38,730 nucleotides of DNA from assembly GCA_964347405.1 (NCBI GenBank), contig CAYFYM010000055.1, forward strand, positions 1 through 38,730. The letters run 5' to 3'. This document shows positions 8,108 through 38,360 of the stretch, one piece after another. A program made the translations under genes and the position numbers. The notes below the pieces were generated by a model. The model did not search any database and was not told the origin of the DNA. It was given only the letters and a program-made list of their open reading frames with translations. This DNA is from an uncultured Candidatus Bathyarchaeia archaeon. Lineage in GTDB: Archaea > Thermoproteota > Bathyarchaeia > TCS64. Numbering within the stretch: position 1 is the stretch's first letter; each line of letters begins with the position of its first letter.

Positions 8108-8113
8108 CCTCCC

Positions 8114-8120
8114 TTTTTTT
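8114..8120 (+). terminator. Oligo-T (T7) archaeal terminator after permease 1
   Basis: The T7 run begins 7 nt after the stop codon and is followed directly by the next TATA box. Confidence 0.55.
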
Positions 8121-8145: not shown

Positions 8146-8161
8146 TATAACTTGACTAAAA

Positions 8162-9019
8162 ATGCCAGGAATAAGAACATACGAGGACTTCGTCTACTCT
8201 TCACGAGAAGAAAAGATGAAGAGGGTGCAGGAGGCCTACGAGCGTTTCCAGGAGACCAAGACCTTTGAGTACCCGGCTTGGCTCTACGGCGAGCCCATGG
8301 GCAAGCTGTTCAAGGTCGAGGTCGAGGACAGCCCCAACTTCGGGGAGACCGCCTACCTGGAGATGGACTCCGCGCAAACCGTCTTCATGGTGGTGGACAT
8401 GCAGATCGACTTCTGTGGCGAGAAGGGCTACGTCAACCAGATGGGGTACCCCTTGGAGAACACTGCCCAGGCCATCGAGCCCATCAAGAAGTGCCTCAAA
8501 GAAGTCAGGAAGACAAACATGAACATCATGTACACCCGTGAGGGCCACGAGCCGTCGCTGACGGGCGCACCGTTCAACAAGATACTGCGGAGCAAGATAA
8601 TCGGCGAAGGCTACGGCATAGGCGACACGCCCCCAGGCGGGATCGGAGAGCTCCTTGTACGAGGCCAGAAGAACTGGGACATCATCGAGGAACTCTACCC
8701 CCAGGAGGGAGACTACATCCTCGACAAGTCGGGGAAAGGCGCGTTCAACCAGAGCGACATCCACCAGAAGCTGCTGAACATGACCCCCCCGCCAAAGTAC
8801 CTGGTGATAACGGGGATCACGGCGGACGTCTGCCCGCACACCATCATGCGTGAGGCGAACGACTTCGGTTACTGGTGTCTGTTCCTGAAGGACGCTTCAG
8901 GCGCGACGGACGAACGTAACCACGAGGCCGCGGTGCGGATGATAAAGATGCAGGGAGGAGTATTCGGGAACGTCTCGGACTCCAAGCGGTTCATCAAGGC
9001 AGTCAAAACCATCCAGTAA
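8162..9019 (+). CDS. Isochorismatase-family cysteine hydrolase (amidohydrolase) with a ~65-aa N-terminal extension
   Basis: 285 aa. VVDMQIDFC (catalytic Asp region), DKSGKGAF (Lys) and ITGITADVCPHTIMREA (nucleophile Cys) match the D-K-C triad layout of this family. Confidence 0.8.
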   Translation: MPGIRTYEDFVYSSREEKMKRVQEAYERFQETKTFEYPAWLYGEPMGKLFKVEVEDSPNFGETAYLEMDSAQTVFMVVDMQIDFCGEKGYVNQMGYPLENTAQAIEPIKKCLKEVRKTNMNIMYTREGHEPSLTGAPFNKILRSKIIGEGYGIGDTPPGGIGELLVRGQKNWDIIEELYPQEGDYILDKSGKGAFNQSDIHQKLLNMTPPPKYLVITGITADVCPHTIMREANDFGYWCLFLKDASGATDERNHEAAVRMIKMQGGVFGNVSDSKRFIKAVKTIQ

Positions 9020-9024
9020 CCCCC

Positions 9025-9031
9025 TTTTTTT
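9025..9031 (+). terminator. Oligo-T (T7) terminator after the hydrolase gene
   Basis: The T7 run starts 6 nt after the stop and is followed at once by cggTTTAAATA. Confidence 0.55.
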
Positions 9032-9042
9032 CGGTTTAAATA
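9032..9042 (+). promoter_or_regulatory. BRE/TATA box (cggTTTAAATA) for permease 2
   Basis: Identical 11-mer to 6771-6781. It ends 23 nt before ATG 9066. Confidence 0.6.
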
Positions 9043-9065
9043 GAATTCTTTTCCACGTATACTAG

Positions 9066-22847: not shown

Positions 22848-23006
22848 TTAGAGGAGTTTATCCAGCTCCTTCTCCATGTCGCCGGACACGCCCGGAGGCC
22901 GCCAGTCGATCTGCTGGGCCTCTACTCCCTGTTCCTTGAGATCCTCGTAGAAATCTAGGAGACCCAGGTTCAATACCTTCAGTTTCTCTTCTAGGATTCT
23001 TGACAT
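22848..23006 (-). CDS. 52-aa ORF coupled to fdrA. Resembles a detached C-terminal tail of FdrA.
   Basis: The ATG at 23006 lies 1 nt after the fdrA stop (23010-23008). The sequence is MSRILEEKLKVLNLGLLDFYEDLKEQGVEAQQIDWRPPGVSGDMEKELDKLL. The track start at 23042 would overlap fdrA. Confidence 0.55.
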   Translation of the reverse strand: MSRILEEKLKVLNLGLLDFYEDLKEQGVEAQQIDWRPPGVSGDMEKELDKLL

Positions 23007-23007
23007 G

Positions 23008-24585
23008 TTACCCCTCCCTCCACGGTATCGGCATCCTCTCACGCCGGGCTATCATTCCTGCCACGGCCGATGCCTGGGCGTTACTGGGCAGCACCAGGAC
23101 CCCGGCGCGTTCAAGCTTCTCGACCTGCTCCTCGTAGCCTTGAGGGTCCTTCGACGTGCCCACCACCGACGCGACCACGGGGAGGTAGCCTCCCTCATCC
23201 TCCGCCCGTCTCTTGGCTGACTTGATGGCGTCGATGAGCGCCCCCGCCGGGTCGTCGTGAGACCCGTACCCCAGCACCACGTCGAGGAGGATGACGGCGG
23301 TCTCCGGGTCCTCCGCCTCCTTCCCTAATCTGATCTTTCTCTGCGTCGGGTCGATCATGGGGTGGGGGCGCCCCTCCACGAACTCCTCGCTCCCCATATC
23401 CACGAAGCTGTGCCCCCTGCTCTCCCTGTGGCTCTCCAGCCTGTAGTCCGGGTTGAGGGGGCTGTTGGAGTACGTGTCGCCTAGGAGCCCTCTCAGAACC
23501 ACCTGGGCCTCGGTTGCGAGGGTTCCCCCCGCGTACAGTCCCCTGACGTACCTCTGCCTCTCGGCCAGCTTCCCCCACTCCGACTCGGCCATTGAAGCCA
23601 GCTCGTCCATGTCCCAGCGATAGAACTGTTCGGTGTAGCCCTCTCCCTTCACGCTGTTCACGGTCCTCACGGCGGCCTGGTCAAGCGTCTCTGCCCAGGT
23701 GTATCCCCTCTCGACGACAAGCCCGGGGTCTCCGCTGAGGAAGTTGATGATCACCGGCTTCGAGGTGTGTGCGTTGAGGTGTTCCAAGATTTTCTCCTCG
23801 ACGCCGGGGCTCGGCGGCTTGGATACGAGCAGGATCAGCTCCGTATCGGGGTCCCCGTCGAGGAGATCGATGGCCTCCATCATCGTGGTGCCCCCTATCC
23901 GTTCGTCGAGGTCGTTTCCTCCCGTGCCGATGGCATGTGTGATCCCGACGCCCATGGACTGCATGAGGCACGTCACCTCCTGGGTCCCGGAGCCCGAGGC
24001 CGCCACTATCCCGACGGGCCCCCTGTCGACAACGTTCCCGAACCCGAGGACCTTTCCCCCGATGATGCTCGTGCCGCAATCGGGGCCCATCACCAGCAGC
24101 CCCTTCTCTTTCCCCAGCGTCTTGAGCTCCCTCTCCCTGGCGATGGGCACGTTGCTGCTGAAGATGAATAGGTTGAGCCTGCGGTCCAGACCCTCTCTGG
24201 CTTCTCTGTAGGCGTGTTCGCCGGGTATGGAGATGGATAGAAGGTTTGCTCCGGGCATGGACTCGAGGGCCGCCTCTATGCTCTTGGGGGAGTACTCCCT
24301 GTCGATGTCTCTGCGCTTGGCTGTCAGCCCCTCCTCGACCCGTTGGAGCATGTCCTCTATTTTGTCTTCCTCGGCGTCGATGCTTATTACGAGGTCGTTG
24401 GGGCCCGCGGAGTCGAGTTCGTCGCCGTACAGGTTCAGCTCCTTGAGTATCTCCTTGTTGGAGTCTGTCCCCATCACGACGGCTATTTGGTTTACCCCCG
24501 TGAACTCCTGGGCCTTCTGGGAGACCCGGAGCAGGAGCACCGAGTCGTAGTACTTCCCCGTTTTCACGATGTTCTTCTTCACCAT
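23008..24585 (-). CDS. fdrA: FdrA-like protein (succinyl-CoA-synthetase-alpha-like fold)
   Basis: 525 aa. KGLLVMGPDCGTSIIGG, VGIVAASGSGTQEV and FVEGRPHPMIDPTQR match my recollection of E. coli FdrA along its whole length. Confidence 0.85.
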   Translation of the reverse strand: MVKKNIVKTGKYYDSVLLLRVSQKAQEFTGVNQIAVVMGTDSNKEILKELNLYGDELDSAGPNDLVISIDAEEDKIEDMLQRVEEGLTAKRRDIDREYSPKSIEAALESMPGANLLSISIPGEHAYREAREGLDRRLNLFIFSSNVPIARERELKTLGKEKGLLVMGPDCGTSIIGGKVLGFGNVVDRGPVGIVAASGSGTQEVTCLMQSMGVGITHAIGTGGNDLDERIGGTTMMEAIDLLDGDPDTELILLVSKPPSPGVEEKILEHLNAHTSKPVIINFLSGDPGLVVERGYTWAETLDQAAVRTVNSVKGEGYTEQFYRWDMDELASMAESEWGKLAERQRYVRGLYAGGTLATEAQVVLRGLLGDTYSNSPLNPDYRLESHRESRGHSFVDMGSEEFVEGRPHPMIDPTQRKIRLGKEAEDPETAVILLDVVLGYGSHDDPAGALIDAIKSAKRRAEDEGGYLPVVASVVGTSKDPQGYEEQVEKLERAGVLVLPSNAQASAVAGMIARRERMPIPWREG

Positions 24586-25445
24586 ATTCTTTCCTCCATT
24601 AACTTTAACGCCGTCAGCACCCCTATGGCGAGGTCCGTGCCCGATGAATGCCCCACCCGGCAGAGCTCCTCTACGGCGTGGTCCAGCCGCCTCTGCGAGC
24701 CTGTGCGCAGAGCCGTCATCAGCTCATCCGTGTTCTCGTCCACCATGCCCAGAGCGTAGTGGCTGAGGAGGGAGCGGCTGATCTCGTTGGTCCTGTTCAC
24801 GGCTTCCCCGAGGATGCGATGCTTCAGCCCGACCTTGGCCTGGGTCAAGCCTCTCGGGGTTCTGGACAGCTCCAAGGTGGCAAGCAGCCCGCTGAGAAGG
24901 TCGTCGCCGCTGGGCGTAAGGCCTGGCCCGAGCCCCAGGAGCTTCACCGCCTCCCCGCCGCCCAGTCCGCCTGCTAGTATGTCGCTGACTATCGCCCTGG
25001 CTTTATACGAGTAGGAGTTGTCCCCTTCCCGGGCTTGGTCTGTGAACATGCTCAGCAGCGGCTTCATCCCCCCGCTTCTCCCGTGGACGATGAGAGACGC
25101 TGACAGGGTCTCGGGGCTCAGCCTCGGCTGCGTCTCCCCTGACGCGGCGGCCGGTCTCCATACGGCTGCAGAGCAGGTGTCGATTTGGGTGCCGCGGCCG
25201 ATTTGTAGGCCACCTGTTCTTAGCTGGGCTTCCTCGCCTTCCCTGAGCTTCGAGAGCGTCTCCGTGTCCTCCACCGTGATCGTGTAGGGCGTCCTCGGGA
25301 TCCGCGTTGACGAGATCGAGTAAAGTTCGCCGCCGAGGGCCAGGTTCGCCACATCGCTGAACACGCTGTGGACCGAGCCGCTGGCCCCGCGTGTGGCGGC
25401 CTCCTTGACCTTGAATCCGATGGATGTCGCCTGAAGCCTTGTCAT
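24579..25445 (-). CDS. DUF2877 (YlbF-like) protein
   Basis: 288 aa. It occupies the position between the fdrA and DUF1116 genes, as in the E. coli fdrA-ylbE-ylbF set. N-terminal ..SVHSVFSDVANLAL.. is typical of the family as I recall it. Overlaps fdrA by 7 nt. Confidence 0.65.
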   Translation of the reverse strand: MTRLQATSIGFKVKEAATRGASGSVHSVFSDVANLALGGELYSISSTRIPRTPYTITVEDTETLSKLREGEEAQLRTGGLQIGRGTQIDTCSAAVWRPAAASGETQPRLSPETLSASLIVHGRSGGMKPLLSMFTDQAREGDNSYSYKARAIVSDILAGGLGGGEAVKLLGLGPGLTPSGDDLLSGLLATLELSRTPRGLTQAKVGLKHRILGEAVNRTNEISRSLLSHYALGMVDENTDELMTALRTGSQRRLDHAVEELCRVGHSSGTDLAIGVLTALKLMEERIW

Positions 25446-25448
25446 GGG

Positions 25449-26570
25449 TTACTCTGCTCTCACTATGGCCGCTATGGGGCCTCCCCCGGGGGGGCCTTGG
25501 TGCTCCGAGCCGCCTGACACGTAGACCATGGGGTCGCCCGTTATCGAGCTCACCACGGCTCCCACCACCGCCCGCGCGTGGCGCGTAGCCGGGAGCATGG
25601 AGTCCGTCAGCATGGTGTGTCTTCTGCCCCTCACCTCCCCGTCGGGGGAGGCGTCGCACTTGGCGAAGACGTTCACGATCCTCGATCTCTGTTCCTCGCT
25701 AGGCTGGCACTCGTACTCGAGTCCCGCGTCTCTGAGCGCGTCGTGGACGGCTCCCGCGTCTATGCCGTCCTTCATGACGCTGTGCCCTATTCTAAGCTTG
25801 CTCACCGACTCGCTGGAGTTGCCCAGGACGACTATCTCGCAGGCGTCGAGCTCGACGCCGGCCGAGGTTGAAGCAACGCTGCTGTAGACGCCTCTCATCT
25901 TGTAGATTACGTCGTCGCCGAGCTCCGTCTCCTCCACCTCCCCCAGGGCCAGGGCGACGCCGAGGGCCGACGCCCCCCTGCTATAGCCCATGGACTTGAG
26001 GGTGTCGTCGGTGGCCACGGTCTCGCCCCTGTCCCGGGCGTCCTTTATCTTGGCGGACGTCAGCAGGGGGCATTTTATCTGGACGAAGTGCACGTCGGAG
26101 GGGCTGCCTATGCGGGCGTCGTCCATGGCCGTCTTGACCTTCTCGGCGACCTCCCTCACCATGGGCATGCGGCCTATCTCTTCGGGCTTGAACCTCCTCG
26201 TCAGGCTGATACCGATGGCCAGGCGTTTACCCTTCCCGGGGGCACCCTCGGCCTCTTTCCTCGTGAAGACCGTGAAGTGGGGGGAGAGCACTCCCTCCGT
26301 CCCGCCGGACATCACCAGGCTCACCCTCTCATCGACCTCCTCCAATGGTATCTTCATCTTCTCGCTCAGCAGGACCTTGCACGCCAGATCCGCCTGGCCC
26401 CTGCTGTAGTCGTTGACGAGGCCGTTGCCCTCGGTCTTGCCGATTATCGCCACTATCTCAGTTGGAGCCACCGCCCCGCTGTCGATCAGCTCCTCTATGC
26501 CTGAGACATCCCCAGGCCCCTCCATCCCCATCTTGTAAACGTTCGAGTCGATCAATCTATTCACCTTCAT
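25449..26570 (-). CDS. Ring-opening amidohydrolase of the AtzD (cyanuric acid hydrolase) / barbiturase family
   Basis: 373 aa, collinear with AtzD as I remember it. Motifs: IIGKTEGNGLVNDY, VMSGGTEGVLSPH, HFVQIKCPLLT, MGYSRGASALGVALA, VNVFAKCDASPDG, VYVSGGSEHQGPPGGGP. Confidence 0.88.
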   Translation of the reverse strand: MKVNRLIDSNVYKMGMEGPGDVSGIEELIDSGAVAPTEIVAIIGKTEGNGLVNDYSRGQADLACKVLLSEKMKIPLEEVDERVSLVMSGGTEGVLSPHFTVFTRKEAEGAPGKGKRLAIGISLTRRFKPEEIGRMPMVREVAEKVKTAMDDARIGSPSDVHFVQIKCPLLTSAKIKDARDRGETVATDDTLKSMGYSRGASALGVALALGEVEETELGDDVIYKMRGVYSSVASTSAGVELDACEIVVLGNSSESVSKLRIGHSVMKDGIDAGAVHDALRDAGLEYECQPSEEQRSRIVNVFAKCDASPDGEVRGRRHTMLTDSMLPATRHARAVVGAVVSSITGDPMVYVSGGSEHQGPPGGGPIAAIVRAE

Positions 26571-27813
26571 ATTTATCCGAGAAAGCCTTCAAAGCCTTCC
26601 TGAAGCACTCCATGGGGGCCCGCACCACTCCGGCGCCTATCTGGCCCACCCCGGGCTCCCTGTGGGCTATACCCGTGTTGATCAACGGGGCCACGCCTTT
26701 CCGCAGAACCTTCCGCAGGTCGATCCCCACGGGGACGCCTCTGAAGTCCAGCTGGGGTATGGTTAGGTTGGGGTCGTCTCCCTGGGTTATCTCGTACATC
26801 TCCCGGGTGTAGTTCAGCGCGTCGCCGGGGATCCCTCCGACGAACTGCACTATGGAGGGGCTGGCCGCCATGGCGAAGCCGCCCACCCCCCGGGTCTCCG
26901 AGATGCTGCTGTCGCCGAGGTCAAGCGCCGCGTCGCTTTTGCTGTACCCCGAGAAGTAGAGTCCGTCCACCTCCGGAGCCTCCGCCGTGTACCACTCGTC
27001 TCCCGTGGCGCTGATCCTTATCCCGAACTCGGTGCCGTTTCGGCTCATGGCCGATGTGATGGTGCAGTGCTCTATGCCTATTATCGAGTCCATGGCGGCC
27101 TTGCTGTTGGCCATGCTGAAGTTGAGGTAGAAGTGCTCGTTTTCCGAGATGAACCCGTAGACCTCCCCCAGCGTCCTCCTGTCGGTGTCGGAGTCGATCA
27201 TCCTGTTGGTCAGTTCTTTCAGCAGGAGGAGCGAGGCGGCCACGTTCCTGTTGTGGACCTCGTCGTTCATGTGGAGAGCCTTGGCGGTGATGGCGTTCAG
27301 ATCGATGGGCTCCGCCTCCCCGGCGACGACTTTAAGCGTCGGGTACAGCGTGTCCTCCATCCACTTCAGCCTCTGGATGACCTCGTCGCTGTACGCCCCG
27401 AACCTCAGAACCTTTCCCAGTCCCTCGTTCAGGTTCGAGTAGGCCCTGTTGCCTCCCTCCATGTTCTCGACGACCATGACTGGCATCGAGGGGCTGATGA
27501 CCCCCGCCATGGGTCCAACGCACCCGTGGTCGTGGCAGGGGCTGAGCACGATGTCCCCGCGCTCGGCCAGCTTCATCGCCTCCTCCGGGTCGTCCGCCAG
27601 TCCCTCGTAGATGATGGCCCCCGTGACGGCGCCTCTCTGGGGGCCGGACATTCTCTCCCACGTCACGGGGGGGCCGGCGTGTAGGAAGGTCTCGTCGTCC
27701 ATGCCGGGGACTGCCGTCTTCGCCAAGCTGAAGCCGGTCAGCATGGGTCTGGCGGATGTGACCCGTTTGAAGGCTTCTTCGTTGGCTTCCGATATGAGAT
27801 CCCTTAAACCCAA
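26557..27813 (-). CDS. DUF1116 (YlbE-like) protein
   Basis: 418 aa, TTG start. FLHAGPP, GPMAGVISPSMPVMVVEN, NEGLGKVLRFGAY and INTGIAHREPGVGQIGAGVVRAPMECF match E. coli YlbE from memory. Confidence 0.85.
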   Translation of the reverse strand: MGLRDLISEANEEAFKRVTSARPMLTGFSLAKTAVPGMDDETFLHAGPPVTWERMSGPQRGAVTGAIIYEGLADDPEEAMKLAERGDIVLSPCHDHGCVGPMAGVISPSMPVMVVENMEGGNRAYSNLNEGLGKVLRFGAYSDEVIQRLKWMEDTLYPTLKVVAGEAEPIDLNAITAKALHMNDEVHNRNVAASLLLLKELTNRMIDSDTDRRTLGEVYGFISENEHFYLNFSMANSKAAMDSIIGIEHCTITSAMSRNGTEFGIRISATGDEWYTAEAPEVDGLYFSGYSKSDAALDLGDSSISETRGVGGFAMAASPSIVQFVGGIPGDALNYTREMYEITQGDDPNLTIPQLDFRGVPVGIDLRKVLRKGVAPLINTGIAHREPGVGQIGAGVVRAPMECFRKALKAFSDKYEGE

Positions 27814-27835
27814 TGCAGTTAAGCCATGGAAGCCG

Positions 27836-27889
27836 TTCTTTAAATACGTTAAAACCTGGCTTTCACCTTTAAAAGCAATCGTTCCTAAG
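27836..27889. promoter_or_regulatory. Divergent promoter region. Minus-strand TATA box (TATTTAAAG, 27838-27846). Plus-strand TATA box (TTTAAAAG, 27868-27875) with candidate operator AATCGTTCCTAAG (27877-27889).
   Basis: The TATA boxes sit 24 nt from TTG 27813 and 30 nt from ATG 27906. The 41 nt from 27868 to 27908 align position by position with 8124-8164. Confidence 0.6.
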
Positions 27890-27905
27890 CTTTTATTGAA
27901 TCGAA

Positions 27906-29183
27906 ATGAATGGGATATTAACGGTCATCCCCCTTGTGGTGATACTGGTCCTAGTGCTGCCGCCCTTCCGTCTGCACATGATGATCGCCGGCCTCGTAGG
28001 CGCGGCGGTAGCTATACTGATAGGGGGCATACCCCTCGGTGACATCACCGGGCTCTACCTGAGCGGCCTGGGCCAGATAATGGGGATAACCTCGGTCATG
28101 ATCCTCGCGGCCGCTGCCAAGCTGCTTGCCGAGATGGGGGCCATAAAGAGCATAGTTAACCTCACCTCTCTGATTTTCAAGGAGAGGCTGTACCTGGCCG
28201 CCGGGTTGATCGTCTTGATCCAGGCGGGCGCGGTTTACGCCGCCGGCCTGGGGGCCGGGAACACCATCGTTACGGCGCCCATGGTCAACAGCCTGATGGG
28301 CTTCGTGCCCGAGGTGGTCGCCGCCATGAGCATAGTGTCTCCTACGTCGTGGGCCACCTCGCCGTCGTCGGCCGAGAGCGCCTACGTTTCAAGCCAGTGG
28401 GGCGTAGACGTGGAGACCTACGCGTCCCACATGAGGCCCTACGTCTACGCTATGTGGGGGCTGGCGACGATCCTAGCGATAGTCGGCACCTACAGGAGGG
28501 GGGTGAAGGTCGAGATCGAGGAGGAGGTGCTGGAGACCCCGTTATCGACTCACCTGGTTAGATCCACGCCGTTCATGTTGTTCCTGCTGCTCATACTCGT
28601 GGGGCCGTGGATCAACTCCGTCGTGGGGACCAGCCTCTCTACACCGATCACCAACGTGCTAGTGGTGGTCATCCTGGCTCAGGCCATCTTCTGGGACAGG
28701 AAGAAGAGCTGGAACGAGAACCTCAGCGAGACGGGTCGGCTATTCGTAAAGTCCTCGGCGCCCATACTGAACTACCTGTTCCTGGCTGGCAGCTTCCTAG
28801 GGTTCATCAAGATGCTTGAGGCGATAGGCACGTTTGAGACCCTGGCCGGGTACGTCGAGTTCGCGCCGCCCTGGGCGCTCTTGCTGGCGGCCGTCGTGAT
28901 AGGGTTCATCGTGGCCATCCCGGCGGGGGCCTACACCGTCGCCACCGACATACTCATCATCCCCACCCTGGCCCTGGCGGGCGTCGAGGGATCGACCTTC
29001 GGCTTCGTCGCCATGGCCGTGGCCTACGGCGCCATGATAAGCCCAGTCCAGATCAACGTCGCCGCGACCGCCGAGGGATTCGGCGTGGAAATCCCCGAGG
29101 TCATCAGCAACAACACGCCTTACATGCCCCTGGCGCTGCTAGCGTTGATAGTGCTGCTCGCCGTCTCGGGGGTCCTCTTCTAA
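27906..29183 (+). CDS. Polytopic membrane permease, family not recognised
   Basis: 425 aa, about 11-12 hydrophobic segments, Gly/Ala-rich helices. Its stop lies 4 nt before the next start. Confidence 0.6.
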   Translation: MNGILTVIPLVVILVLVLPPFRLHMMIAGLVGAAVAILIGGIPLGDITGLYLSGLGQIMGITSVMILAAAAKLLAEMGAIKSIVNLTSLIFKERLYLAAGLIVLIQAGAVYAAGLGAGNTIVTAPMVNSLMGFVPEVVAAMSIVSPTSWATSPSSAESAYVSSQWGVDVETYASHMRPYVYAMWGLATILAIVGTYRRGVKVEIEEEVLETPLSTHLVRSTPFMLFLLLILVGPWINSVVGTSLSTPITNVLVVVILAQAIFWDRKKSWNENLSETGRLFVKSSAPILNYLFLAGSFLGFIKMLEAIGTFETLAGYVEFAPPWALLLAAVVIGFIVAIPAGAYTVATDILIIPTLALAGVEGSTFGFVAMAVAYGAMISPVQINVAATAEGFGVEIPEVISNNTPYMPLALLALIVLLAVSGVLF

Positions 29184-29187
29184 CCCC

Positions 29188-30414
29188 ATGTCGTTGACGA
29201 TAATCAATGCAAGGCTGGGCTCCTCCGAGGAGACGTACAGCATAGAGATCAGGGGCGGTGTCATCGAGGATATAGTCCTCGGGGCTTCGGGGGGCGACGA
29301 ACTCATCGACGCCGGGGGGAGGCTGGTCTCCCCGGGGCTGGTGGATCCCCACATGCATCTCGACAAGGCGTTTCTCTCGGAGCGCTACGCGAACAGGACG
29401 GGCACCCTGGAGGAGGCCATAAGGGTGATGGGCGAGGCCAAGAGGAGGTTCACCGTGGAGTCCGTGGCGCAGCGAGCCGGGAGGCTGGTGGAGATGGCGT
29501 CGGCCCACGGGACCACGCTGATACGGACGCACGTGGACGTGGACACCATCGTTGGCTTGACGGGGCTAGAGGCCCTGCTGGGGGTCAGGGAGGCCTACAG
29601 GGGCCGCGTCGATCTGCAGATAGTCGCCTTCCCGCAAGAGGGGTTGGAGCAGGAGGGGGCGGTCTCCCTGCTCGAGGACGCCCTAGAGATGGGCGCCGAC
29701 GCGGTGGGGGGCATACCTGCCCTGGACGAGGACCCGGAGGTCCACATAGACACAGTTTTCGAGCTCAGCGGCAGGCACTCGGTTGACGTGGACATGCACA
29801 TAGACGAGTCGGAGTCCCCGGATGACCTGACCCTCGAATACTACGCGGACAAGGCGTCAAGCGTCCACGGCGACGCCAGGATGGTCACCAGCCACTGCAG
29901 CTCGTTATCCGTAGTCGAGGACGAGAAGGCCGCCCAGGTCATCGATAAGGTACGTGAAGCAGGGATAGGCGTGGTGACGCTGCCTTCAACGAACCTGTAC
30001 CTGCTGGGGAGGAACGGCTACCCCAAGACGAGGGGGCTCACCCGGGTCAGACAGCTCCTCGACGCGGGCGTCCAGGTGCTCTATGGCTCCGACAACGTCC
30101 GCGACCCCTTCAACCCCTTCGGTAACGCGAACCTCCTGGAGATAGGATGCATACTGGCGCACGCCGACCACATGGGCGGCGGCGAGGAGTTGCGGCGGGT
30201 GTTCAGCATGGCCTCGGAGAGACCCAAGACGCTCCTGAGGGACGACCGCGGCCTGTTCGTAGGCTCCAGAGCCGACTTGGTGGTGCACGACGCCCTCGAC
30301 CCCATCGACGCCGTCGTGTCCCACAGGCGGCCCCTCTGCGTCATCAAAGACGGATCCATAGTGTCCCTGGACGGGCGTCAGGCGCCTGAGCCTGTTATGA
30401 AGTCATCGAAGTAG
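29188..30414 (+). CDS. CodA-family amidohydrolase (cytosine deaminase / AtzC / creatinine deaminase-type)
   Basis: 408 aa, collinear with E. coli CodA from memory. Motifs: PGLVDPHMHLDKA, IRTHVDVD, DLQIVAFPQEG, DVDMHIDE, VTSHC, YPKTRGLTRV, GSDNVRDPFNPFG. Confidence 0.88.
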   Translation: MSLTIINARLGSSEETYSIEIRGGVIEDIVLGASGGDELIDAGGRLVSPGLVDPHMHLDKAFLSERYANRTGTLEEAIRVMGEAKRRFTVESVAQRAGRLVEMASAHGTTLIRTHVDVDTIVGLTGLEALLGVREAYRGRVDLQIVAFPQEGLEQEGAVSLLEDALEMGADAVGGIPALDEDPEVHIDTVFELSGRHSVDVDMHIDESESPDDLTLEYYADKASSVHGDARMVTSHCSSLSVVEDEKAAQVIDKVREAGIGVVTLPSTNLYLLGRNGYPKTRGLTRVRQLLDAGVQVLYGSDNVRDPFNPFGNANLLEIGCILAHADHMGGGEELRRVFSMASERPKTLLRDDRGLFVGSRADLVVHDALDPIDAVVSHRRPLCVIKDGSIVSLDGRQAPEPVMKSSK

Positions 30415-31871
30415 GGCACCTTTACCGGCACGGCGAACTTGGTGAAGATGCTGGTTATTATGGCCTCCCCGATGTCTAGGCTCGATATGTTGTGCTGCTC
30501 GCTGGAGAGGTCCTGGGAGCTGCTGTCGATGAGGGTTTCCGTCTCAGACTTTAGCTCGTTTCCGAGGATGATCTTGGTGCACAGGTTCGTCAGTATGGGC
30601 TTGGGGATGACGCTGGTTAGCTGGGTGACCGCCAGCAGCCCTATGTTGAACTTCCTCCCCTCCCTCGCGATGAGGCTGTATATGCTCTCTCCCTTGGTCC
30701 TTATGGTCTCGGCGGCCAGCGCCCTGGGGGCCTCCTCTATAACGATCGTTATGGTGGGGAGGTTATCCAGCGAGCCCTCGGCCTTGCTGCACAGGTACCT
30801 CTCGAAGACGGTGTGGGCGATCATGCTGCCTATCAACAGCTCGGCCTCGTCCACGAGCCGGATGGTGTCCACTATGACCGTCTTCCCGTCGATGAGGTCG
30901 TCTATCATCTGGTCGAGGGTATCCAGCCCGCTTTCCTGGCTGAATATCTGGCTGTGGCAGCGTATCACGCTCCCCGTGTCGAGGTATATCCCCAGCAGGG
31001 ACTCGAGTTTCCTCTTTATAGAGGCGAAGTGTCTCCCCTCGGTCTCCTCGTACTCGCCCCTCACGATGCCCTCGATCCACTCGTCCCCATTCCTGCCGTG
31101 GTAGCTCTTTATGACGCTCATCTCCGTCTCGGTCAGGCTCACAACACCCTCGAGGTGGCTGGGCTTGATGGATCTGAGGTTGATCACGAGCCCCTTCCCC
31201 CCGTCCGCCTGCACAGGGCTGTAGTACACCAGCCTCTCGTCCGAGCGGGGGTGGTTTTTCAGCCCCGCGCCGTGTCTCCCATAGTACTCGTCGTGGGGGT
31301 CCAGCACCAGGCACCCGTAGGAGCCCTCCTTCAGGCCCATGATCCCCCAGAGCAGGACCTTAACGAGGTTGCTCTTCCCGCGGCCGGTCATGGCGGGCAC
31401 AAGTATGTGGTGGGGCAGCAGGTCATCGGCGTCGAGATAGACCCCCACGTCGAGTACCTTGGAGCCGCTTCTCACGTAGCCTAGGAAGAGGGGGTTCTCG
31501 GGCTTCGAGAGAAAAAAGAGGTCCCTGGAGGTCATGCCTCGCACCATGGAGAACATCTGGGGCAGGGCCTTCGCAGACACCAGCTTACCCTCCTCGTCTA
31601 CGGTGGCTATCTCCTTGGCTACGGCGATGACGTACTCTCTCCCCTTCGAGAAGTAGTTCTGGATCTTTTCCCCTTGGAGGCCAATCTCCGCTATGAACTC
31701 CCTGGACTCGGCGGATATCTGACTGCCGAACCTCAGATCGTACACCTGAAGAAGCAGCGATTGATCTTCGCCCTCTACGACGAGGAGCTCACCAAGCTCC
31801 AGCTTCACATCGTTCCGGGCCCTGATCAGGAGGGCTCCGTACTCCCCGCCTGTGATGATCCCTCGCTCCAA
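30378..31871 (-). CDS. HerA/DUF87-type P-loop ATPase (FtsK-HerA superfamily)
   Basis: Walker A PAMTGRGKSNLVK, Walker B ITIVIEEAPR, and EGRKFNIGLLAVTQ. The track start 31919 lies inside the AT-rich promoter. TTG 31871 lies 21 nt after TTTATATTATATTAAA (31893-31908). The 3' end overlaps the convergent CodA-family gene by 37 nt. Confidence 0.8.
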   Translation of the reverse strand: MERGIITGGEYGALLIRARNDVKLELGELLVVEGEDQSLLLQVYDLRFGSQISAESREFIAEIGLQGEKIQNYFSKGREYVIAVAKEIATVDEEGKLVSAKALPQMFSMVRGMTSRDLFFLSKPENPLFLGYVRSGSKVLDVGVYLDADDLLPHHILVPAMTGRGKSNLVKVLLWGIMGLKEGSYGCLVLDPHDEYYGRHGAGLKNHPRSDERLVYYSPVQADGGKGLVINLRSIKPSHLEGVVSLTETEMSVIKSYHGRNGDEWIEGIVRGEYEETEGRHFASIKRKLESLLGIYLDTGSVIRCHSQIFSQESGLDTLDQMIDDLIDGKTVIVDTIRLVDEAELLIGSMIAHTVFERYLCSKAEGSLDNLPTITIVIEEAPRALAAETIRTKGESIYSLIAREGRKFNIGLLAVTQLTSVIPKPILTNLCTKIILGNELKSETETLIDSSSQDLSSEQHNISSLDIGEAIITSIFTKFAVPVKVPYFDDFITGSGA

Positions 31872-31920
31872 ACTGCTCGGATATACACCCGATTTAATAT
31901 AATATAAACAGAAAAACACT

Positions 31921-33540: not shown

Positions 33541-34899
33541 TTGGTTAGAGTAATACCTGGTGTAGAGGTTAAAGTAATCAAAGAGATCATTCCACCGGCA
33601 CCATATCCCTCTGGAGTCGTTGGTATGATGGGGACTGCTGAGAAGGGTCCTGAACTCACCCCAACCCACTTGGGGAGTTGGAGGGAGTTTGCCGACCTAT
33701 TCGGTGACAGTCCTGAATATACCCTGACACAGAGTGTCAAACAGTGCTTCCAGAACGGGGTCTTCGAGGTCGTTGCTACTCGGATAGTGGGGAAGGGTGG
33801 CGAATATTCCTCGGCCAAGTTGAAGGACAGTGAGAAAGCGGACACCGTGGAGTTGGTGGCAAAGGCCATTGGCGAAGCTGGCGATGACATAGGCTTTTCG
33901 ATTGAGCCTGGTACGACGGAGAACACGGTCAGGTTACTGCTGAGTGATGGCGTGGTCTTCGAGGTATTCGACGACCTCGACATGAATAGGAGAAGCGACA
34001 AGTACTTGGTGAAGTACGTCAACGAGAACTCGAAGCTCGTCAAAGCCAATGATCTAAAGTCTAAGACGAAGGCACCGGGCAACTACCCTGTCCCAGTTGA
34101 GGGAAAGCTGAAAGGCGGAAAGCCTCCAGGCGACCCAACTGAGGAGAGCTTTGAGGCGGCCCTCGAGAGGCTGGAGGCTGAGGCTGAGGTCGACATGGTG
34201 TGCGCCTGCGAAGTTACGGATCCCAAGGTCCACGCCCTTATAGAGGCCCATTGCGTCAACATGAGTAATTGGGCCATGGGCAGGATCGGCATCGGGTCTG
34301 TGGAGGAAGGAGAGGAAATCAGCGACATCACCAAGAGAACGGAGGTGCTCGCAAGCGACAGATTCATACTAGTGGCGCCCCACGGTATCGCCGGCGCTGT
34401 AGCCGGCCTAATCAGCAAACTGAGTTACTACGAGTCACCTACCTTCAAGGCCTTGACGGGTCTCTCAGAGCTGGAGCAGAAATACACCCCCTCCCAGGCA
34501 AGGCAGCTACTCAATGCCGGAATCCTGCCCGTATGGGCACAGAAGGGCAAAGGACTAATCGTCATCAAGGGAATCACGACAAGTAAGGAGCAGATCAACG
34601 TTACCCGGACGACGGACCACGCGGTGAGGCTGGTAAAGTCGACGGGCGACCAGTTCATCGGAACCCTAAACAACGCCACGGGCAGAGCCGCCCTCAAGGA
34701 GAAGATCACGGAACTGATGCTACGGATGGAGAACGAGGGTGCGATCGTGCCGAGCACAGACGGTTCAGAGCCAGCTTTCATTGTGGATGTATACAGCTCA
34801 CAACTCGACTTCGCTCAGGGAATAGTCAGAGTCGACTTGGCCGTGAGGCCTGTCCGGGCGATAGACTACATCTACGCGACCATAACGGTCCAGGCATAG
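33541..34899 (+). CDS. Contractile tail sheath protein
   Basis: 452 aa. N-terminus IPGVEVKVIKEIIPPAPYPSGVVGMMGTAEKGP..THLGSWREFADLFG is the classic sheath opening. C-terminus ..GIVRVDLAVRPVRAIDYIYATITVQA is typical of sheath C-domains. A tube gene follows. Confidence 0.85.
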   Translation: MVRVIPGVEVKVIKEIIPPAPYPSGVVGMMGTAEKGPELTPTHLGSWREFADLFGDSPEYTLTQSVKQCFQNGVFEVVATRIVGKGGEYSSAKLKDSEKADTVELVAKAIGEAGDDIGFSIEPGTTENTVRLLLSDGVVFEVFDDLDMNRRSDKYLVKYVNENSKLVKANDLKSKTKAPGNYPVPVEGKLKGGKPPGDPTEESFEAALERLEAEAEVDMVCACEVTDPKVHALIEAHCVNMSNWAMGRIGIGSVEEGEEISDITKRTEVLASDRFILVAPHGIAGAVAGLISKLSYYESPTFKALTGLSELEQKYTPSQARQLLNAGILPVWAQKGKGLIVIKGITTSKEQINVTRTTDHAVRLVKSTGDQFIGTLNNATGRAALKEKITELMLRMENEGAIVPSTDGSEPAFIVDVYSSQLDFAQGIVRVDLAVRPVRAIDYIYATITVQA

Positions 34900-34912
34900 G
34901 AGGTGATGTGGA

Positions 34913-35308
34913 GTGTCATTAATGATTGTATCTGCGGCGAAGAGCAAGGTTACCGTAGATGGCAACGAGGTCGAAGGCGTCCAGTCTATAGACTTCAAGG
35001 TACGTAGGAGACAAGCAGACATAGAGGCCATAGGAGTAGCAGAGCGCATAGGAATAGAGTCGGGACAAGTGATTGTAACAGGCTCCCTCAGGATCAGCTC
35101 AATTAACACAGCGCTAGACGATTTCCTTTATCCGGTAGACCCACCGGGCTTCAACATGGTCTTGACCCTCAACGTGGCTGAGGGGACACAAGTCAGACAG
35201 ATAACCTTCGACGAGTGTTACCTCGATGACAAGACCTTTGAGATGACGGCGAATGGCGTCGGTGTCACGGCATACAACTTTACTTCAACTAGGGTAAGGG
35301 AAGAATAG
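34913..35308 (+). CDS. Tail tube protein
   Basis: 131 aa, directly after the sheath gene. GGAGGTGA (34899-34906) lies 6 nt before GTG 34913. Beta-rich pattern KVTVDGNEVEGVQSIDF..VTGSL..FTSTRV is consistent with tube proteins. Confidence 0.65.
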   Translation: MSLMIVSAAKSKVTVDGNEVEGVQSIDFKVRRRQADIEAIGVAERIGIESGQVIVTGSLRISSINTALDDFLYPVDPPGFNMVLTLNVAEGTQVRQITFDECYLDDKTFEMTANGVGVTAYNFTSTRVREE

Positions 35309-35339
35309 GGAGTAACCTAGCTAAGAGAAAGGGACCGAG

Positions 35340-35726
35340 ATGAGTGGGACGAAGAGGCTTACGAAGGAGGACATCCTTAAGGGCAAGGAAAGACACGAGC
35401 CGCTGTACGTCGAGGAATACGACGCAGAAGTCGTGATAAGACCTCTGACTGATGGCGAACTCACCAACATCTTCTCCCTAATCGGAAACGTCCCACTCAA
35501 CGAGGATGGCACCCCAGACATAGCAAGTATGGACGCCACGAAGAACTTCGAGGCCCTAAGGATGGCTGCCTCCATGGGAATGGTGGAGCCGAACCTGACG
35601 AAGGAAGATGTCTCTGATATGAAGTTCGGGGTACCTGAGTTCATCGGCATGAAGGTACTAGAGATCAGCGGAGTAACATCGAGTGAGGAAGCTAAAAAAA
35701 AAGCTAGAGATGGAGGAGTTCGTTAA
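35340..35726 (+). CDS. Tail assembly chaperone candidate (G/E-like ORF)
   Basis: 128 aa, located between the tube and tape-measure genes. Acidic, with VVIRPLTDGEL. It ends just after an A9 tract that overlaps the next ORF. Confidence 0.55.
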   Translation: MSGTKRLTKEDILKGKERHEPLYVEEYDAEVVIRPLTDGELTNIFSLIGNVPLNEDGTPDIASMDATKNFEALRMAASMGMVEPNLTKEDVSDMKFGVPEFIGMKVLEISGVTSSEEAKKKARDGGVR

Positions 35727-35910
35727 GAGCCCTGACGGTCTTGAGCTCTCAACCCTCTGCCTCGACTACGGGTACAAACTCGCTGACAGCCCAGGGGACC
35801 TCACACGGGATCAGATCAACTTCCTTATTTTTGCATTGTCGCATCGACTAAAGCAGATGAGTTACTCCAGGCCAACAGAGAGCGACACCACAAGGATCAT
35901 ATTCGAGTAG
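35683..35910 (+). CDS. Overlapping +1-frame ORF (T/E'-like extension of the chaperone)
   Basis: A 75-codon ORF in the +1 frame that overlaps the previous ORF by 44 nt across A9 (35694-35702). It has no promoter or SD of its own. Confidence 0.45.
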   Translation: MRKLKKKLEMEEFVKSPDGLELSTLCLDYGYKLADSPGDLTRDQINFLIFALSHRLKQMSYSRPTESDTTRIIFE

Positions 35911-35942
35911 ATCAACGTGAACCATTCAGAGGGGAACCTCAC

Positions 35943-38360
35943 ATGAGCCGCTTCGAGACGCTCGTCAAGAAAACCTTGGAGATGCAGAGAGCCAGCGCCT
36001 ACGCTCTACCCGTACTTGGACCTAACAAAGCCATCTCCTCAATGATAAACAAGTTATACGAAATAGGCATCCCCGACAATCTTAACACCTTGGCTTTAAG
36101 AATGGTCGGAATAATGAGGCGAGTCGCTCGACTGCAAGTGGCCATCTCAACGCCAACGATACCCGCCATTCTATCCCAGGAGCCAGCTTACAAGGTAGCT
36201 GAGTTCGAAGAGGCGTATCCAAGAATTGAGGAACCCCAAAAATTTGTCGTTACCAGCAGGTTTGATCCCCTAACCAACATCATCAGGAGAATGGTAAGAA
36301 GCTTCCTTAGGCGCCCACGTAGACCAGAGCGCGGGCGCGCACCCGAACCACTTTCCATAAAAAAGGAAAAAGGATACACAATCCCCGAGTACATACAGAG
36401 AATCATAGCAGCGATACCGCCGTTGGCGTATGTTCCCCCTGAATTGAGACACAGACCGGAGATCGAGAAGCCTGAATTAATCGCTGAAACCCGACTTGAG
36501 GAAATATCAGTTCCCAAGAGTGTGGACGTCCCAGATAGGTACTATGAAATCGTCGAGGAATACGAGGTCCCTGGTAAGAGAGTCCCTCTGATGCCCAGGG
36601 CGGAACTCTCAAGGGCGAAAACTCCCTCTCTGAGGATAACCCCCCAAGTGAGAATAGTCCGCCAGACGTTCCAAGACCTCGCTAAATGGGCCGCCGGCGT
36701 GAGCGCCGCCCAGCCAGCCGTCACGAAGATGGGTCTCGTCGATAATTACGTGGACATGCAGGCATCGATCCACGATGTCGTCAGCCAGCAGATAGATGTC
36801 CGGAAAATCAGACCAACATATGATTGGAGGCCGCTAATTCTGGAGGCGACGAAGATCGCCAGCGAGCAAGTGTTCGCATGGGGTAAGGATGAAATGGAGG
36901 CCGGCCGACCAGGGGTCTTTAGGGGGCCGCAGATCGAGAGGGCAGTGGAGGCTGTAGAGGGCCTCGCTGAGGACGAGCTCTCCCCCTTGGTCACTGACAT
37001 ACTGACGAGAGAGGCGGAGAGCAAGGCCGCCCTGGTCTCCTCCGAAGTGGAAAGAGTTACACGACAGCTGGCCGAGGAGGCGGCCGAGACCTACAGGCAG
37101 GCATTAACCCAGTTGATGCCGGTACACCGCCGGGCGGCTGTCAAGGAGCTGGTCCACGCGCCCGGACTCAAGGAGCTTGTGACCAAGAAGCTCCGCACCT
37201 CCCTTGAGATAATAGGCATTAGGGAAGCAATCTCGGAGGAGGTCAGAGAACGAGGGATGGAGTTAGGCAAGAAACATCCTCTTCACGAGTATATCGCGAG
37301 GGTGGCGAGGCTTGCCGGGGTCGCAAGGCCCGAGGTTCCCACGCATCCTGTTGTGGAAGAGGATATGGTACCTGCCACATCGCCTTTCCACCCGCTTCAC
37401 GAGTACATCACAATGGCATCGAGGCTTGCCGGGGTCACAAGGCCCGAGGTTCCCACGCATCCGATCGGAGAAGAGGATATGGTACCTGCCACATCGCCTT
37501 TCCACCCGCTTCACGAGTACATCACAATGGCATCGAGGCTTGCCGGGGTCGCAAGGCCCGAGGTTCCCACGCATCCTGTTGTGGAAGAGGATATGGTACC
37601 TGCCACATCGCCTTTCCACCCGCTTCACGAGTACATCACTAGGGTGGCGAGGCTCGCCGGGATCACACGAGTAGAGCTGCCTGCCCCCATGGAAGAATTG
37701 ATGGCGCCGACCCCAACGCCGTTACGCCCTCTGCAAGACTACATCGACATCACTGCCAAGCTTGCAGAGGTCGCTAAGTTGGAGGAACCCATAATTTCGA
37801 TCGAGGAGGAAGTGGAGGAGATCGCCGGGGCCCCCCGGCACCCCATAAGGGCTTATCTCGATCTGGCATCCAGGTTAGGGGAATTCATGAGCGCACGCGC
37901 AGCCGCTGTTTATGGGATAACCGCTGCTCATGTTCCCGAGGTGGAATATCTGGGTGGGAAGCTGGAAGTCTCCAAGGCCTTCGATTACATTAGCGTATTG
38001 AAGGAAATCGTCACTTCAAAGGTGGAGGCCGAGAAGGTTTTGACGGCATCCTTGAGCGGAGTGGTTTCCAGCCTGCTGGAGGTCCCCCTGGGGGAACAGG
38101 CACCTGAGGTAGTTGGCCTGGAGTTCCCTGTATCGGTGCCGAGCCCGAGGCTTCTGGACATGGTGTCCGTGCTCTCGCGTGTCGAGACGATCCCCGGCAC
38201 GCAGAGGCCTCCATCGGTCAGGCGGGAGCGTGTCGTGGAGAGGCGGCGCCCCATAGATATAAAGGTCGAGCCAAAGATAGGTGATATCGACCTCAAAGAG
38301 CTGGAGAGGAAGATAGCCCGCATCCTGAGGGAAGAGGCTCGAAGGTATGGTGTGTACTGA
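35943..38360 (+). CDS. Tape measure protein candidate (805 aa) with internal tandem repeats
   Basis: Largest ORF of the module, in the canonical position after the chaperone pair. Helix-rich and charged. Contains 38-aa tandem repeats. Its stop overlaps the next start (TGATG). Confidence 0.55.
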   Translation: MSRFETLVKKTLEMQRASAYALPVLGPNKAISSMINKLYEIGIPDNLNTLALRMVGIMRRVARLQVAISTPTIPAILSQEPAYKVAEFEEAYPRIEEPQKFVVTSRFDPLTNIIRRMVRSFLRRPRRPERGRAPEPLSIKKEKGYTIPEYIQRIIAAIPPLAYVPPELRHRPEIEKPELIAETRLEEISVPKSVDVPDRYYEIVEEYEVPGKRVPLMPRAELSRAKTPSLRITPQVRIVRQTFQDLAKWAAGVSAAQPAVTKMGLVDNYVDMQASIHDVVSQQIDVRKIRPTYDWRPLILEATKIASEQVFAWGKDEMEAGRPGVFRGPQIERAVEAVEGLAEDELSPLVTDILTREAESKAALVSSEVERVTRQLAEEAAETYRQALTQLMPVHRRAAVKELVHAPGLKELVTKKLRTSLEIIGIREAISEEVRERGMELGKKHPLHEYIARVARLAGVARPEVPTHPVVEEDMVPATSPFHPLHEYITMASRLAGVTRPEVPTHPIGEEDMVPATSPFHPLHEYITMASRLAGVARPEVPTHPVVEEDMVPATSPFHPLHEYITRVARLAGITRVELPAPMEELMAPTPTPLRPLQDYIDITAKLAEVAKLEEPIISIEEEVEEIAGAPRHPIRAYLDLASRLGEFMSARAAAVYGITAAHVPEVEYLGGKLEVSKAFDYISVLKEIVTSKVEAEKVLTASLSGVVSSLLEVPLGEQAPEVVGLEFPVSVPSPRLLDMVSVLSRVETIPGTQRPPSVRRERVVERRRPIDIKVEPKIGDIDLKELERKIARILREEARRYGVY
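37275..37616 (+). repeat. Three near-identical in-frame 114-bp tandem repeats, followed by 2-3 degenerate units to about 37950
   Basis: Units at 37275, 37389 and 37503 each encode HPLHEYI(A/T)(R/M)(V/A)(A/S)RLAGV(A/T)RPEVPTHP(VV/IG)EEDMVPATSPF. Later units read HPLHEYITRVARLAGITRVELP.., RPLQDYIDITAKLAEVAKLEEP.. and HPIRAYLDLASRLGEF.. Confidence 0.95.

Follow-up and report, generated by a model that had tools for sequence, protein, structure and literature searches.

A cyanuric acid hydrolase-like gene embedded in an AllFGH-type carbamoyltransferase operon of a Bathyarchaeia archaeon: a candidate module for phosphorolytic cyanurate breakdown

At least two routes by which cyanuric acid is mineralized are known, via biuret or via 1-carboxybiuret, and both are purely hydrolytic as described (PMC6219798). 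In Pseudomonas sp. ADP, the ring is opened by AtzD, and the single operon atzDGEHF captures the unstable intermediate with the AtzEG amidase, the AtzH decarboxylase, and the AtzF allophanate hydrolase (PMC6219798). The product of cyanuric acid hydrolases (CAHs), 1-carboxybiuret, decarboxylates spontaneously to biuret (PMC6219798), and Rhizobium leguminosarum combines a CAH with the BiuH-type cysteine hydrolase and an allophanate hydrolase (PMC5806882, PMC6219798). Ureido compounds can also be cleaved with phosphate. AllFGH of Escherichia coli interconverts oxalurate plus phosphate and oxamate plus carbamoyl phosphate (PMC11326118), and the carbamate kinase AllK then recovers ATP in the anaerobic allantoin pathway (PMC11326118, PMC9843812); likewise, the arginine deiminase pathway phosphorolyses a ureido compound to carbamoyl phosphate and recovers ATP with catabolic ornithine transcarbamylase and carbamate kinase, although there the substrate is citrulline and the transcarbamylase fold is unrelated. 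In ammonia-oxidizing archaea and comammox Nitrospira without upstream allantoin genes, biuH lies together with allFGHK (PMC12625717). Here, we describe an operon of an uncultured Candidatus Bathyarchaeia archaeon, located in a 38,730-nucleotide stretch of DNA (contig CAYFYM010000055.1; hereafter the window), in which genes of the same three families as E. coli AllFGH, with the same mini-domain, enclose a gene for an AtzD-family ring-opening hydrolase. We put at slightly better than even the chance that this operon represents a conserved module for the catabolism of cyanuric acid or of a closely similar symmetric triazine-trione, in which known enzyme families and known chemistry are probably combined into an undescribed, energy-conserving pathway.

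The operon comprises five packed minus-strand genes, from which two plus-strand genes diverge. All coordinates and tight junctions given by the initial annotation, which was made from the sequence alone, were reproduced for these open reading frames (ORFs). The operon genes, in order of transcription, are as follows:

26557..27813, minus strand: AllG-type subunit (formerly DUF1116), gene 1 of the operon; PF06545, 2e-88, 296 bits (cut-off 27)
25449..26570, minus strand: cyanuric acid hydrolase-like ring-opening amidohydrolase of the AtzD/TrzD family; PF09663, 9e-156, 519 bits
24579..25445, minus strand: AllH-type subunit (formerly DUF2877); PF11392, 1.7e-24, 87 bits (cut-off 25)
23008..24585, minus strand: AllF/FdrA-type subunit; NF004760, 479 bits (cut-off 433)
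22848..23006, minus strand: free-standing 52-aa mini-domain ORF; positions 503-550 of the NCBIfam FdrA model

The junctions are, in the same order, a 14-nt overlap between allG and the hydrolase gene, a 3-nt gap, a 7-nt overlap, and a 1-nt gap. Profile hidden Markov models (HMMs) agreed with the family assignments, since the AllG, AtzD-family, AllH, and AllF models were matched above their cut-offs and the 52-aa ORF fell on the FdrA model.

The hydrolase scored 529 bits against the NCBIfam cyanuric acid amidohydrolase equivalog NF052395 (cut-off 360), 527 bits against TIGR02714 (cut-off 153), and 518.9 bits against PF09663 (cut-off 25), with residues 10-372 of 373 covered. Its scores against proteins of known structure descended from TrzD (PDB 5T13, 448 bits) and the Moorella thermoacetica CAH (6BUM, 432 bits) to Pseudomonas AtzD (4BVQ, 390 bits) and barbiturase (5HWE, 326 bits), and it was about 58% identical to the characterized Moorella enzyme. 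Every catalytic Ser and Lys residue of the family was present. The three Ser-Lys-Arg triads are complete (Lys45/Ser88/Arg57, Lys166/Ser236/Arg198, and Lys304/Ser352/Arg333), and these residues, as well as Arg330 and Glu356, were invariant in an alignment of 24 homologues. Such Ser-Lys dyads with partner arginines have been described for the Moorella and Azorhizobium enzymes (PMC6557486, PMC4051656), and the family-wide dyad of domain 2 is kept as Ser236/Lys166, equivalent to Ser226/Lys156 in Azorhizobium and Ser231/Lys161 in Moorella. At the positions that discriminate CAHs from barbiturase (Moorella numbering), the window protein reads SRGASALG around Arg193, TRHARAVV around Arg325/328, and VSGGSEHQG around Gly348/Glu351, whereas barbiturase 5HWE reads SNGGTALG, HRQIKSCV, and VSVSAAHQG, respectively. 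Because these residues are of the CAH kind and because barbiturate inhibits CAHs without being turned over (PMC4051656), we read the enzyme as a cyanuric acid hydrolase; judged by its residues, it is CAH-like, with a complete CAH active site that includes each residue by which true CAHs bind substrate or catalyze. The initial annotation had placed the protein in an AtzD/barbiturase family, and of this pair the AtzD half holds while the barbiturase half does not. Barbiturase chemistry, with ureidomalonate as the opened ring, was rejected as the leading interpretation on the active-site residues, and carboxybiuret, allophanate, or biuret are therefore likelier intermediates than ureidomalonate.

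The AllF, AllG (YlbE), and AllH proteins of the window were 35%, 45%, and 31% identical to their E. coli counterparts, the last value referring to the C-terminal domain. AllF scored 269 bits against E. coli FdrA (PDB 3DMY), with which it has the motif GRPHPMIDPT in common, and it resembles the alpha subunit of succinyl-CoA synthetase in its CoA-binding and CoA-ligase domains. AllG is of the short form, which lacks an N-terminal mini-domain; its AlphaFold2 model had a predicted local distance difference test (pLDDT) score of 87 and a sole Foldseek match, PDB 3CLQ, with a template modeling (TM) score of 0.95, an uncharacterized Enterococcus member of the AllG family that offers no mechanistic clue. 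The single-sequence AlphaFold2 model of AllH reached a pLDDT of 37, and only the C-terminal ~110 residues of this protein match the Pfam model. AllH evolves much faster than its partners: it is about 32% identical between the window and the sister metagenome contig L010 (L010:11137-12099), where AllG, AtzD, and AllF are 65-75% identical. At a second sister contig, L011 (L011:11571-13134), ORF calling split AllF into pieces of 237 and 297 aa, with a tblastn break near residue 203-215 that may reflect a frameshift, a pseudogene, or an assembly error. The initial annotation had tied FdrA, YlbE, and YlbF to oxamate carbamoyltransferase, which has been shown by experiment for E. coli AllFGH (PMC11326118), and the matches to these families show that the operon encodes all subunits of a predicted AllFGH-type carbamoyltransferase, split into four polypeptides.

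The fourth of these polypeptides is the 52-aa ORF, whose alignment lies close to the end of the 555-position FdrA model. It shares homology with the final ~50 residues of E. coli AllF and with the initial ~55 residues of the long form of AllG (465-490 aa), which carries the mini-domain at its N terminus and was found in Bacillota, in locus L013, and in a haloarchaeon. The copies have the motif VxNxG..F..L......VxWxPPxxG in common, and an HMM built from non-E. coli copies only matched E. coli AllF at residues 509-554 (E = 9e-12); a phmmer search of PDB sequences with the 52-aa ORF alone gave no match. In L010/L011, in the korarchaeal locus L102, and in the thorarchaeal locus L103, a free-standing copy of 53-58 aa comes after AllF. 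By homology, the 52-aa ORF is a mobile mini-domain of the AllF/AllG boundary and effectively a fourth AllFGH polypeptide. Whereas in E. coli it forms the C terminus of AllF, in the window it was presumably left as a separate polypeptide because allG had moved to the front of the operon. The idea that the ORF is a frameshifted pseudogene was rejected, as four separate archaeal loci have kept the free ORF, which in the window starts with a codon of its own and has a purine-rich stretch, GGAGGGAGGGG, directly ahead of its ATG.

The linkage of AtzD to FdrA, DUF1116, and DUF2877 that the initial annotation had reported from this one contig is widely conserved and repeatedly rearranged. A first search of genome contigs with the AtzD protein yielded at least nine loci, mostly short; the sample comprised 80 further metagenome loci, and a neighbor-joining tree was built from about 100 hydrolases and the PDB references. 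The tree splits in two, with the window protein, the Moorella CAH, and TrzD on one side and Pseudomonas AtzD with soil and alphaproteobacterial sequences on the other. We restricted the counts to loci with at least 3 kb of flank and called a locus linked when AllF, AllG, or AllH lay beside AtzD. Linkage was found at 27 of 35 loci in the window clade versus 0 of 27 in the sister clade of Pseudomonas AtzD, where the neighbors are ABC transporters and an M20 peptidase (Fisher p = 1.5e-10, a value that overstates the support because the loci are not phylogenetically independent). The linked loci belong to Bathyarchaeia and to Bacillota, among them Moorella and Zhaonella. Inside the window clade, the metagenome loci L032, L034, L035, L045, L047, and L072 form a subgroup whose hydrolases share about 59% identity with that of the window; sampled mostly in soil or rhizosphere, these loci show no AllFGH in flanks of up to 14 kb, and L034 has a BTAD/AAA regulator and branched-chain-type ABC permeases as neighbors. 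This lineage seems to have lost the AllFGH linkage.

At least 10 gene orders were seen among the linked loci, including GDHF, FGD, FGKD, PHFGDK, DPXHFGK, DAPXHFGK, and PDHFGK (D, AtzD; F, G, and H, AllF, AllG, and AllH; K, carbamate kinase; P, 425-aa permease; X, NCS2 permease; A, CodA-like protein). Since the linkage has outlasted so many rearrangements, co-location appears to be under selection. The GDHF order, with the hydrolase gene between allG and allH, is confined to window-type Bathyarchaeia: L010 and L011, whose hydrolases are 75% identical to that of the window, have the same operon (AllG, AtzD, AllH, AllF, and a 53-aa ORF) and the same divergent permease and amidohydrolase. Loci L013-15 (65% identical) carry an NCS2 permease, a BiuH-like protein, carbamate kinase, a permease, AllH on the opposite strand, and then AllF-AllG-AtzD. 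Bacillota that are cultured or have sequenced genomes also carry the linked genes. The order in Zhaonella formicivorans is PucR, permease, AllH, AllF, AllG, AtzD, and NCS2 permease, with the kinase 4 kb further on, and Moorella sp. Hama-1 has the same cluster from the permease to NCS2. In Alkaliphilus crotonatoxidans, the order is PucR, AtzD, permease, NCS2 permease, AllH, AllF, AllG, and carbamate kinase, and the complete genome of Amphibacillus sp. Q70 repeats it with a CodA-like amidohydrolase inserted after AtzD. The hydrolases of Zhaonella (P0052) and Moorella sp. Hama-1 (P0123) are 94% and 85% identical to the biochemically and structurally characterized Moorella CAH, whose activity is proven and whose pocket is tight (PMC4051656), so a proven CAH lineage sits in an AllFGH cluster. 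Fragments of a molybdenum hydroxylase of the xanthine-dehydrogenase type (MoCoBD_2, CO_deh_flav_C, and Fer2/Fer2_2) lie among transposases 8-10 kb from the clusters of Hama-1 (L105:18661-21104) and Zhaonella (L016:1-124), and their presence might point to an oxidation that precedes the opening of the ring.

Clustering of all ORFs from 31 linked loci gave the families that recur around the hydrolase. Among enzymes these were AtzD (27 loci), AllG (22), AllF (19), AllH (19), carbamate kinase (13), CodA-like (7), and BiuH-like (5); among permeases and regulators they were the 425-aa permease (19), NCS2 (15), PucR (7), and NCS1 (3). The kinase of the Alkaliphilus cluster (L018) passes the arcC equivalog model with 381 bits (cut-off 358). 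No amidase-signature enzyme (AtzE/AtzF), urease, or allantoin-pathway gene was recurrent in the 31 loci. The same holds for allB, allC, allD, and allE, the context that supplies oxalurate in E. coli, and neither these genes nor a PF01425 amidase were present among the 30 Pfam-scanned proteins of the window. Since only those families recur, the minimal self-contained set consists of permeases, CAH, AllFGH, and carbamate kinase.

The remaining genes that we assign to the system, or consider as candidates for it, are the divergent pair beside the operon and a distal block 16 kb away:

27814..27905, no strand: divergent intergenic region of 92 nt, putative bidirectional archaeal promoter with two TATA-like boxes
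27906..29183, plus strand: 425-aa permease of an uncharacterized family; weak Pfam GntP match, 5.7e-5
29188..30414, plus strand: CodA/AtzC-family amidohydrolase; PF07969/PF01979
6806..8107, plus strand: NCS2 (xanthine/uracil family) permease, first copy; PF00860, 2e-46
8162..9019, plus strand: BiuH-like cysteine hydrolase of the isochorismatase family; PDB BiuH 6AZO, 215 bits
9066..10370, plus strand: NCS2 permease, second copy, a paralogue 61% identical to the first; PF00860, 1.9e-48

Homologues of the 425-aa permease (38-72% identity) make it the most faithful non-enzymatic companion of the linked loci and a candidate substrate importer. The CodA-like protein fell below every NCBIfam cut-off; in the PDB, it scored 218 bits against cytosine deaminase 4R7W, 192 against E. 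coli CodA, and 160 against AtzC, and its homologues stand mostly beside AtzD. It is a candidate deaminase that may make the ring substrate, e.g., cyanuric acid from ammelide. The spacer between the two transcription units holds the TATA-like boxes TTTAAATA (27839-27846) and TTTAAAAG (27868-27875), each about 30 nt from the start codon that it faces, and would function as a bidirectional promoter; the divergent arrangement is also present in L010/L011.

The BiuH-like protein, encoded between the two NCS2 permeases, has the Asp/Lys/Cys triad aligned and conserved, and besides Rhizobium BiuH (6AZO) it matched Herbaspirillum BiuH (6XJM, 200 bits), TrtA (125 bits), and RutB (55 bits). Since its score against the BiuH equivalog NF050097 (237 bits) lies under the cut-off of 370, we name it BiuH-like only. 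A 69%-identical homologue adjoins the operon in L010/L011, and a 75%-identical NCS2 permease belongs to the L010 cluster; for this reason, the three distal genes (6806-10370) are probably part of the same system. Between the NCS2 permease and the BiuH-like gene of L013-15 lies a gene for a 510-aa protein without a Pfam or NCBIfam match (L013:1190-2722), of which a 55%-identical homologue occurs near the L046 cluster (L046:13508 region).

From these parts, a pathway can be proposed. Import of the substrate would fall to the 425-aa permease, the NCS2 permeases, or both; where needed, the CodA-like deaminase would supply it by converting an amino-triazine such as ammelide. The hydrolase would open the ring to 1-carboxybiuret, whose terminal carbamoyl group an AllFGH-like complex would attack with phosphate to give carbamoyl phosphate and allophanate; a possible second round would turn allophanate into carbamoyl phosphate and carbamate. 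Biuret arising from spontaneous decarboxylation could be converted to allophanate by the BiuH-like hydrolase. The carbamoyl phosphate would be used to make ATP by carbamate kinase or would enter arginine and pyrimidine synthesis. Tight translational coupling and the position of the hydrolase gene between allG and allH would help to pass the unstable carboxybiuret on. Carboxybiuret (-OOC-NH-CO-NH-CO-NH2) and allophanate (-OOC-NH-CO-NH2) can be regarded as close analogues of oxalurate (-OOC-CO-NH-CO-NH2), and the clusters that lack BiuH imply that the complex is able to accept what the CAH produces. The nitrifier clusters, with their biuret-type hydrolase beside AllFGH and carbamate kinase, offer an independent hint in the same direction. 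Comparative genomics supports well a reading in which the opened ring would be phosphorolysed.

Set against the described systems, the proposed chemistry is that of E. coli AllFGH, in which an N-carbamoyl compound and phosphate give carbamoyl phosphate; a further common feature is a carbamate kinase, which adjoins the genes in many relatives. The differences are that the window lacks allB/C/D/E and a kinase, that a CAH is embedded in its operon, and that carboxybiuret or allophanate is the presumed substrate in place of oxalurate. The window also has in common with Pseudomonas sp. ADP the AtzD-family opening of cyanuric acid to 1-carboxybiuret and a single operon suited to capturing it, but none of the hydrolytic downstream enzymes of that organism recurs in the linked clusters, and its AtzD belongs to the clade without AllFGH linkage. 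As in R. leguminosarum, a CAH occurs with a BiuH-type cysteine hydrolase, but here the BiuH-like gene is optional among the linked loci, no allophanate hydrolase is encoded in the window, and AllFGH stands where AtzF would be expected. A full-text literature search, which covered few subscription journals, so that a prior mention is possible, found no paper linking AtzD or CAH to FdrA, DUF1116, DUF2877, AllFGH, or carbamate kinase, nor an earlier description of the proposed energy-conserving variant. The closest paper, PMC12625717, places biuH beside allFGHK, explicitly reports the absence of atzD, and takes AllFGH to be specific for oxalurate.

Several observations weigh against the proposed cyanurate pathway. 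Eight of the 35 loci in the window clade lack AllFGH. The PucR regulators and the nucleobase permeases are hints of a substrate derived from purines or pyrimidines instead. In a crude neighbor-joining tree, the AtzD-linked AllGs are interspersed with unlinked ones, and no substrate-specific subfamily is visible. Finally, tblastn bore out the caveat of the initial annotation that the window holds no carbamate kinase, as no such gene was found in its 38.7 kb or within reach in L010/L011; the missing kinase is, however, encoded inside the cluster in many relatives.

The strongest competing explanation, which we nevertheless regard as unlikely, is that enzymes of this AtzD clade open another natural heterocycle from purine or pyrimidine oxidation, e.g., parabanate (directly to oxalurate) or another oxidized nucleobase, that AllFGH phosphorolyses the product, and that cyanuric acid is a side activity; carbamoyl phosphate would still be made. 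The PucR-type regulators of seven linked loci, the NCS2/NCS1 nucleobase permeases of at least 15, and the molybdenum-hydroxylase fragments near the Moorella and Zhaonella clusters would suit such a substrate, as would the oxalurate activity of E. coli AllFGH (PMC11326118) and the fact that cyanuric acid has no known biological source (PMC4051656). However, all nine triad residues that fit a three-fold symmetric substrate are invariant, and the BiuH-like gene suits cyanurate and biuret chemistry. Furthermore, the Moorella enzyme, to which that of Zhaonella is nearly identical, is a proven CAH with a tight pocket and is inhibited by barbiturate (PMC4051656).

Less probable still are two independent ureide pathways that are merely co-located and co-regulated, with an oxalurate-specific AllFGH acting on exogenous oxalurate and the cyanurate product hydrolysed by BiuH and by an allophanate hydrolase or urease encoded elsewhere. 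Demonstrated AllFGH activity is confined to oxalurate and oxamate (PMC11326118), AllG sequences show no split according to genomic context, the window encodes a BiuH-like hydrolase, and the biuH and allFGHK genes of nitrifiers, whose genomes lack atzD, were read by the authors as separate biuret and oxalurate pathways, with no phosphorolysis of biuret-type ureides proposed (PMC12625717). Against these points stands the embedding of the hydrolase gene between allG and allH, with codons that overlap or abut. In addition, many Bacillota clusters consist of AtzD, AllFGH, kinase, and permeases only, with no BiuH, amidase, urease, or allantoin-pathway gene, and linkage through at least 10 rearrangements is hard to explain without a shared pathway. 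It is very improbable that FdrA, DUF1116, and DUF2877 do something other than carbamoyl transfer, such as acting as an acyl-CoA or acyl-phosphate ligase without making carbamoyl phosphate, for although AllF has the CoA-binding and CoA-ligase domains of the succinyl-CoA synthetase alpha type and identity to the E. coli subunits is just 31-45%, all three family HMMs were matched above their cut-offs, an arcC-equivalog carbamate kinase is the next gene in many clusters, and no CoA dependence has been reported for the E. coli complex (PMC11326118).

AllG homologues with 55-60% identity also occur in archaeal clusters without AtzD, in Korarchaeota, Thorarchaeota, and Halobacteriaceae. The korarchaeal cluster (L102:4021-11186; ENA ERZ27236675) encodes a creatinase/M24-like protein, a CodA-like amidohydrolase (430 bits against a subfamily model of cytosine deaminases), AllF, a free 55-aa mini-ORF, a PF04199 cyclase-type hydrolase, AllG, and, on the opposite strand, AllH. 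The thorarchaeal cluster (L103:1917-10233) encodes AllG twice, together with a Bmp/ABC nucleoside-type transporter, AllH, AllF, and a free 58-aa mini-ORF, and that of Halobacteriaceae (L104:1-12689) has xanthine-dehydrogenase subunits, an amidohydrolase, carbamate kinase, AllH, an amidase, AllF, long-form AllG, and an NCS2 permease. We gave up the notion that a carboxybiuret-type subfamily of AllFGH exists, because the AllG tree does not separate AtzD-linked from unlinked modules; for the same reason, AllFGH looks like a modular unit. The korarchaeal arrangement suggests that lineages differ in the ring-opening or amide hydrolase with which AllFGH is paired. More tentatively, and at somewhat less than an even chance, AllFGH may be a general ureide phosphorylase that anaerobic archaea and bacteria have bolted onto different ring-opening hydrolases, the partner being a CAH in the window and the PF04199 cyclase-type hydrolase with the CodA-like enzyme in the korarchaeal contig; in the cyanurate version, the ring would be dismantled one carbamoyl at a time into carbamoyl phosphate and, with carbamate kinase, would yield up to two ATP per ring by substrate-level phosphorylation.

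The archaeal origin of the window agrees with a TFIIB gene at 15483-16415 and with the closest hydrolase and AllG homologues, which are named Bathyarchaeia or Bathyarchaeota; no tRNA or Rfam element was found in the 38.7 kb. The operon and its divergent partners have a GC content of 62-64% (GC at third codon positions, 0.80-0.86), compared with 53-59% in the neighboring genes and 53-57% in the BiuH/NCS2 block, and an AT-rich stretch with about 46% GC lies at 14-17 kb. The raised GC of the operon may reflect horizontal acquisition or an expression-related bias. HerA-like (DUF87) ATPase genes adjoin the cluster in three archaeal-type contigs (window 30378-31919, L010:3249-4756, and L013:12499-16287, the last with NurA). 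At 33541-38360, the window encodes a 452-aa phage-tail-sheath-like protein (PF04984/PF17482), then small ORFs, and then an 805-aa ORF without a family match; this region may be what is left of a prophage or else a contractile injection system. A sheath gene is also found downstream of the Alkaliphilus cluster (L018:20893), probably by coincidence.

If the proposed pathway is correct, it would be a third, energy-conserving cyanurate route and a mechanism for the breakdown of cyanurate by anaerobes, and it would add a second substrate class to a transcarbamylase that was identified only in 2024. The pathway is directly testable, as the cluster is present in the cultured Zhaonella formicivorans, Moorella sp. 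Hama-1, and Alkaliphilus crotonatoxidans, and the Moorella hydrolase has already been purified and crystallized. It would also change the reading of the biuH and allFGHK clusters of nitrifiers and of the annotation of metagenome genes as FdrA acyl-CoA synthetase, DUF1116, and DUF2877. Cyanuric acid has no known biological source, which raises the question of what the CAH fold does in nature (PMC4051656); on the more tentative reading of AllFGH as a general ureide phosphorylase, fermentative triazine use would give this fold an ancient natural role that predates man-made s-triazines.

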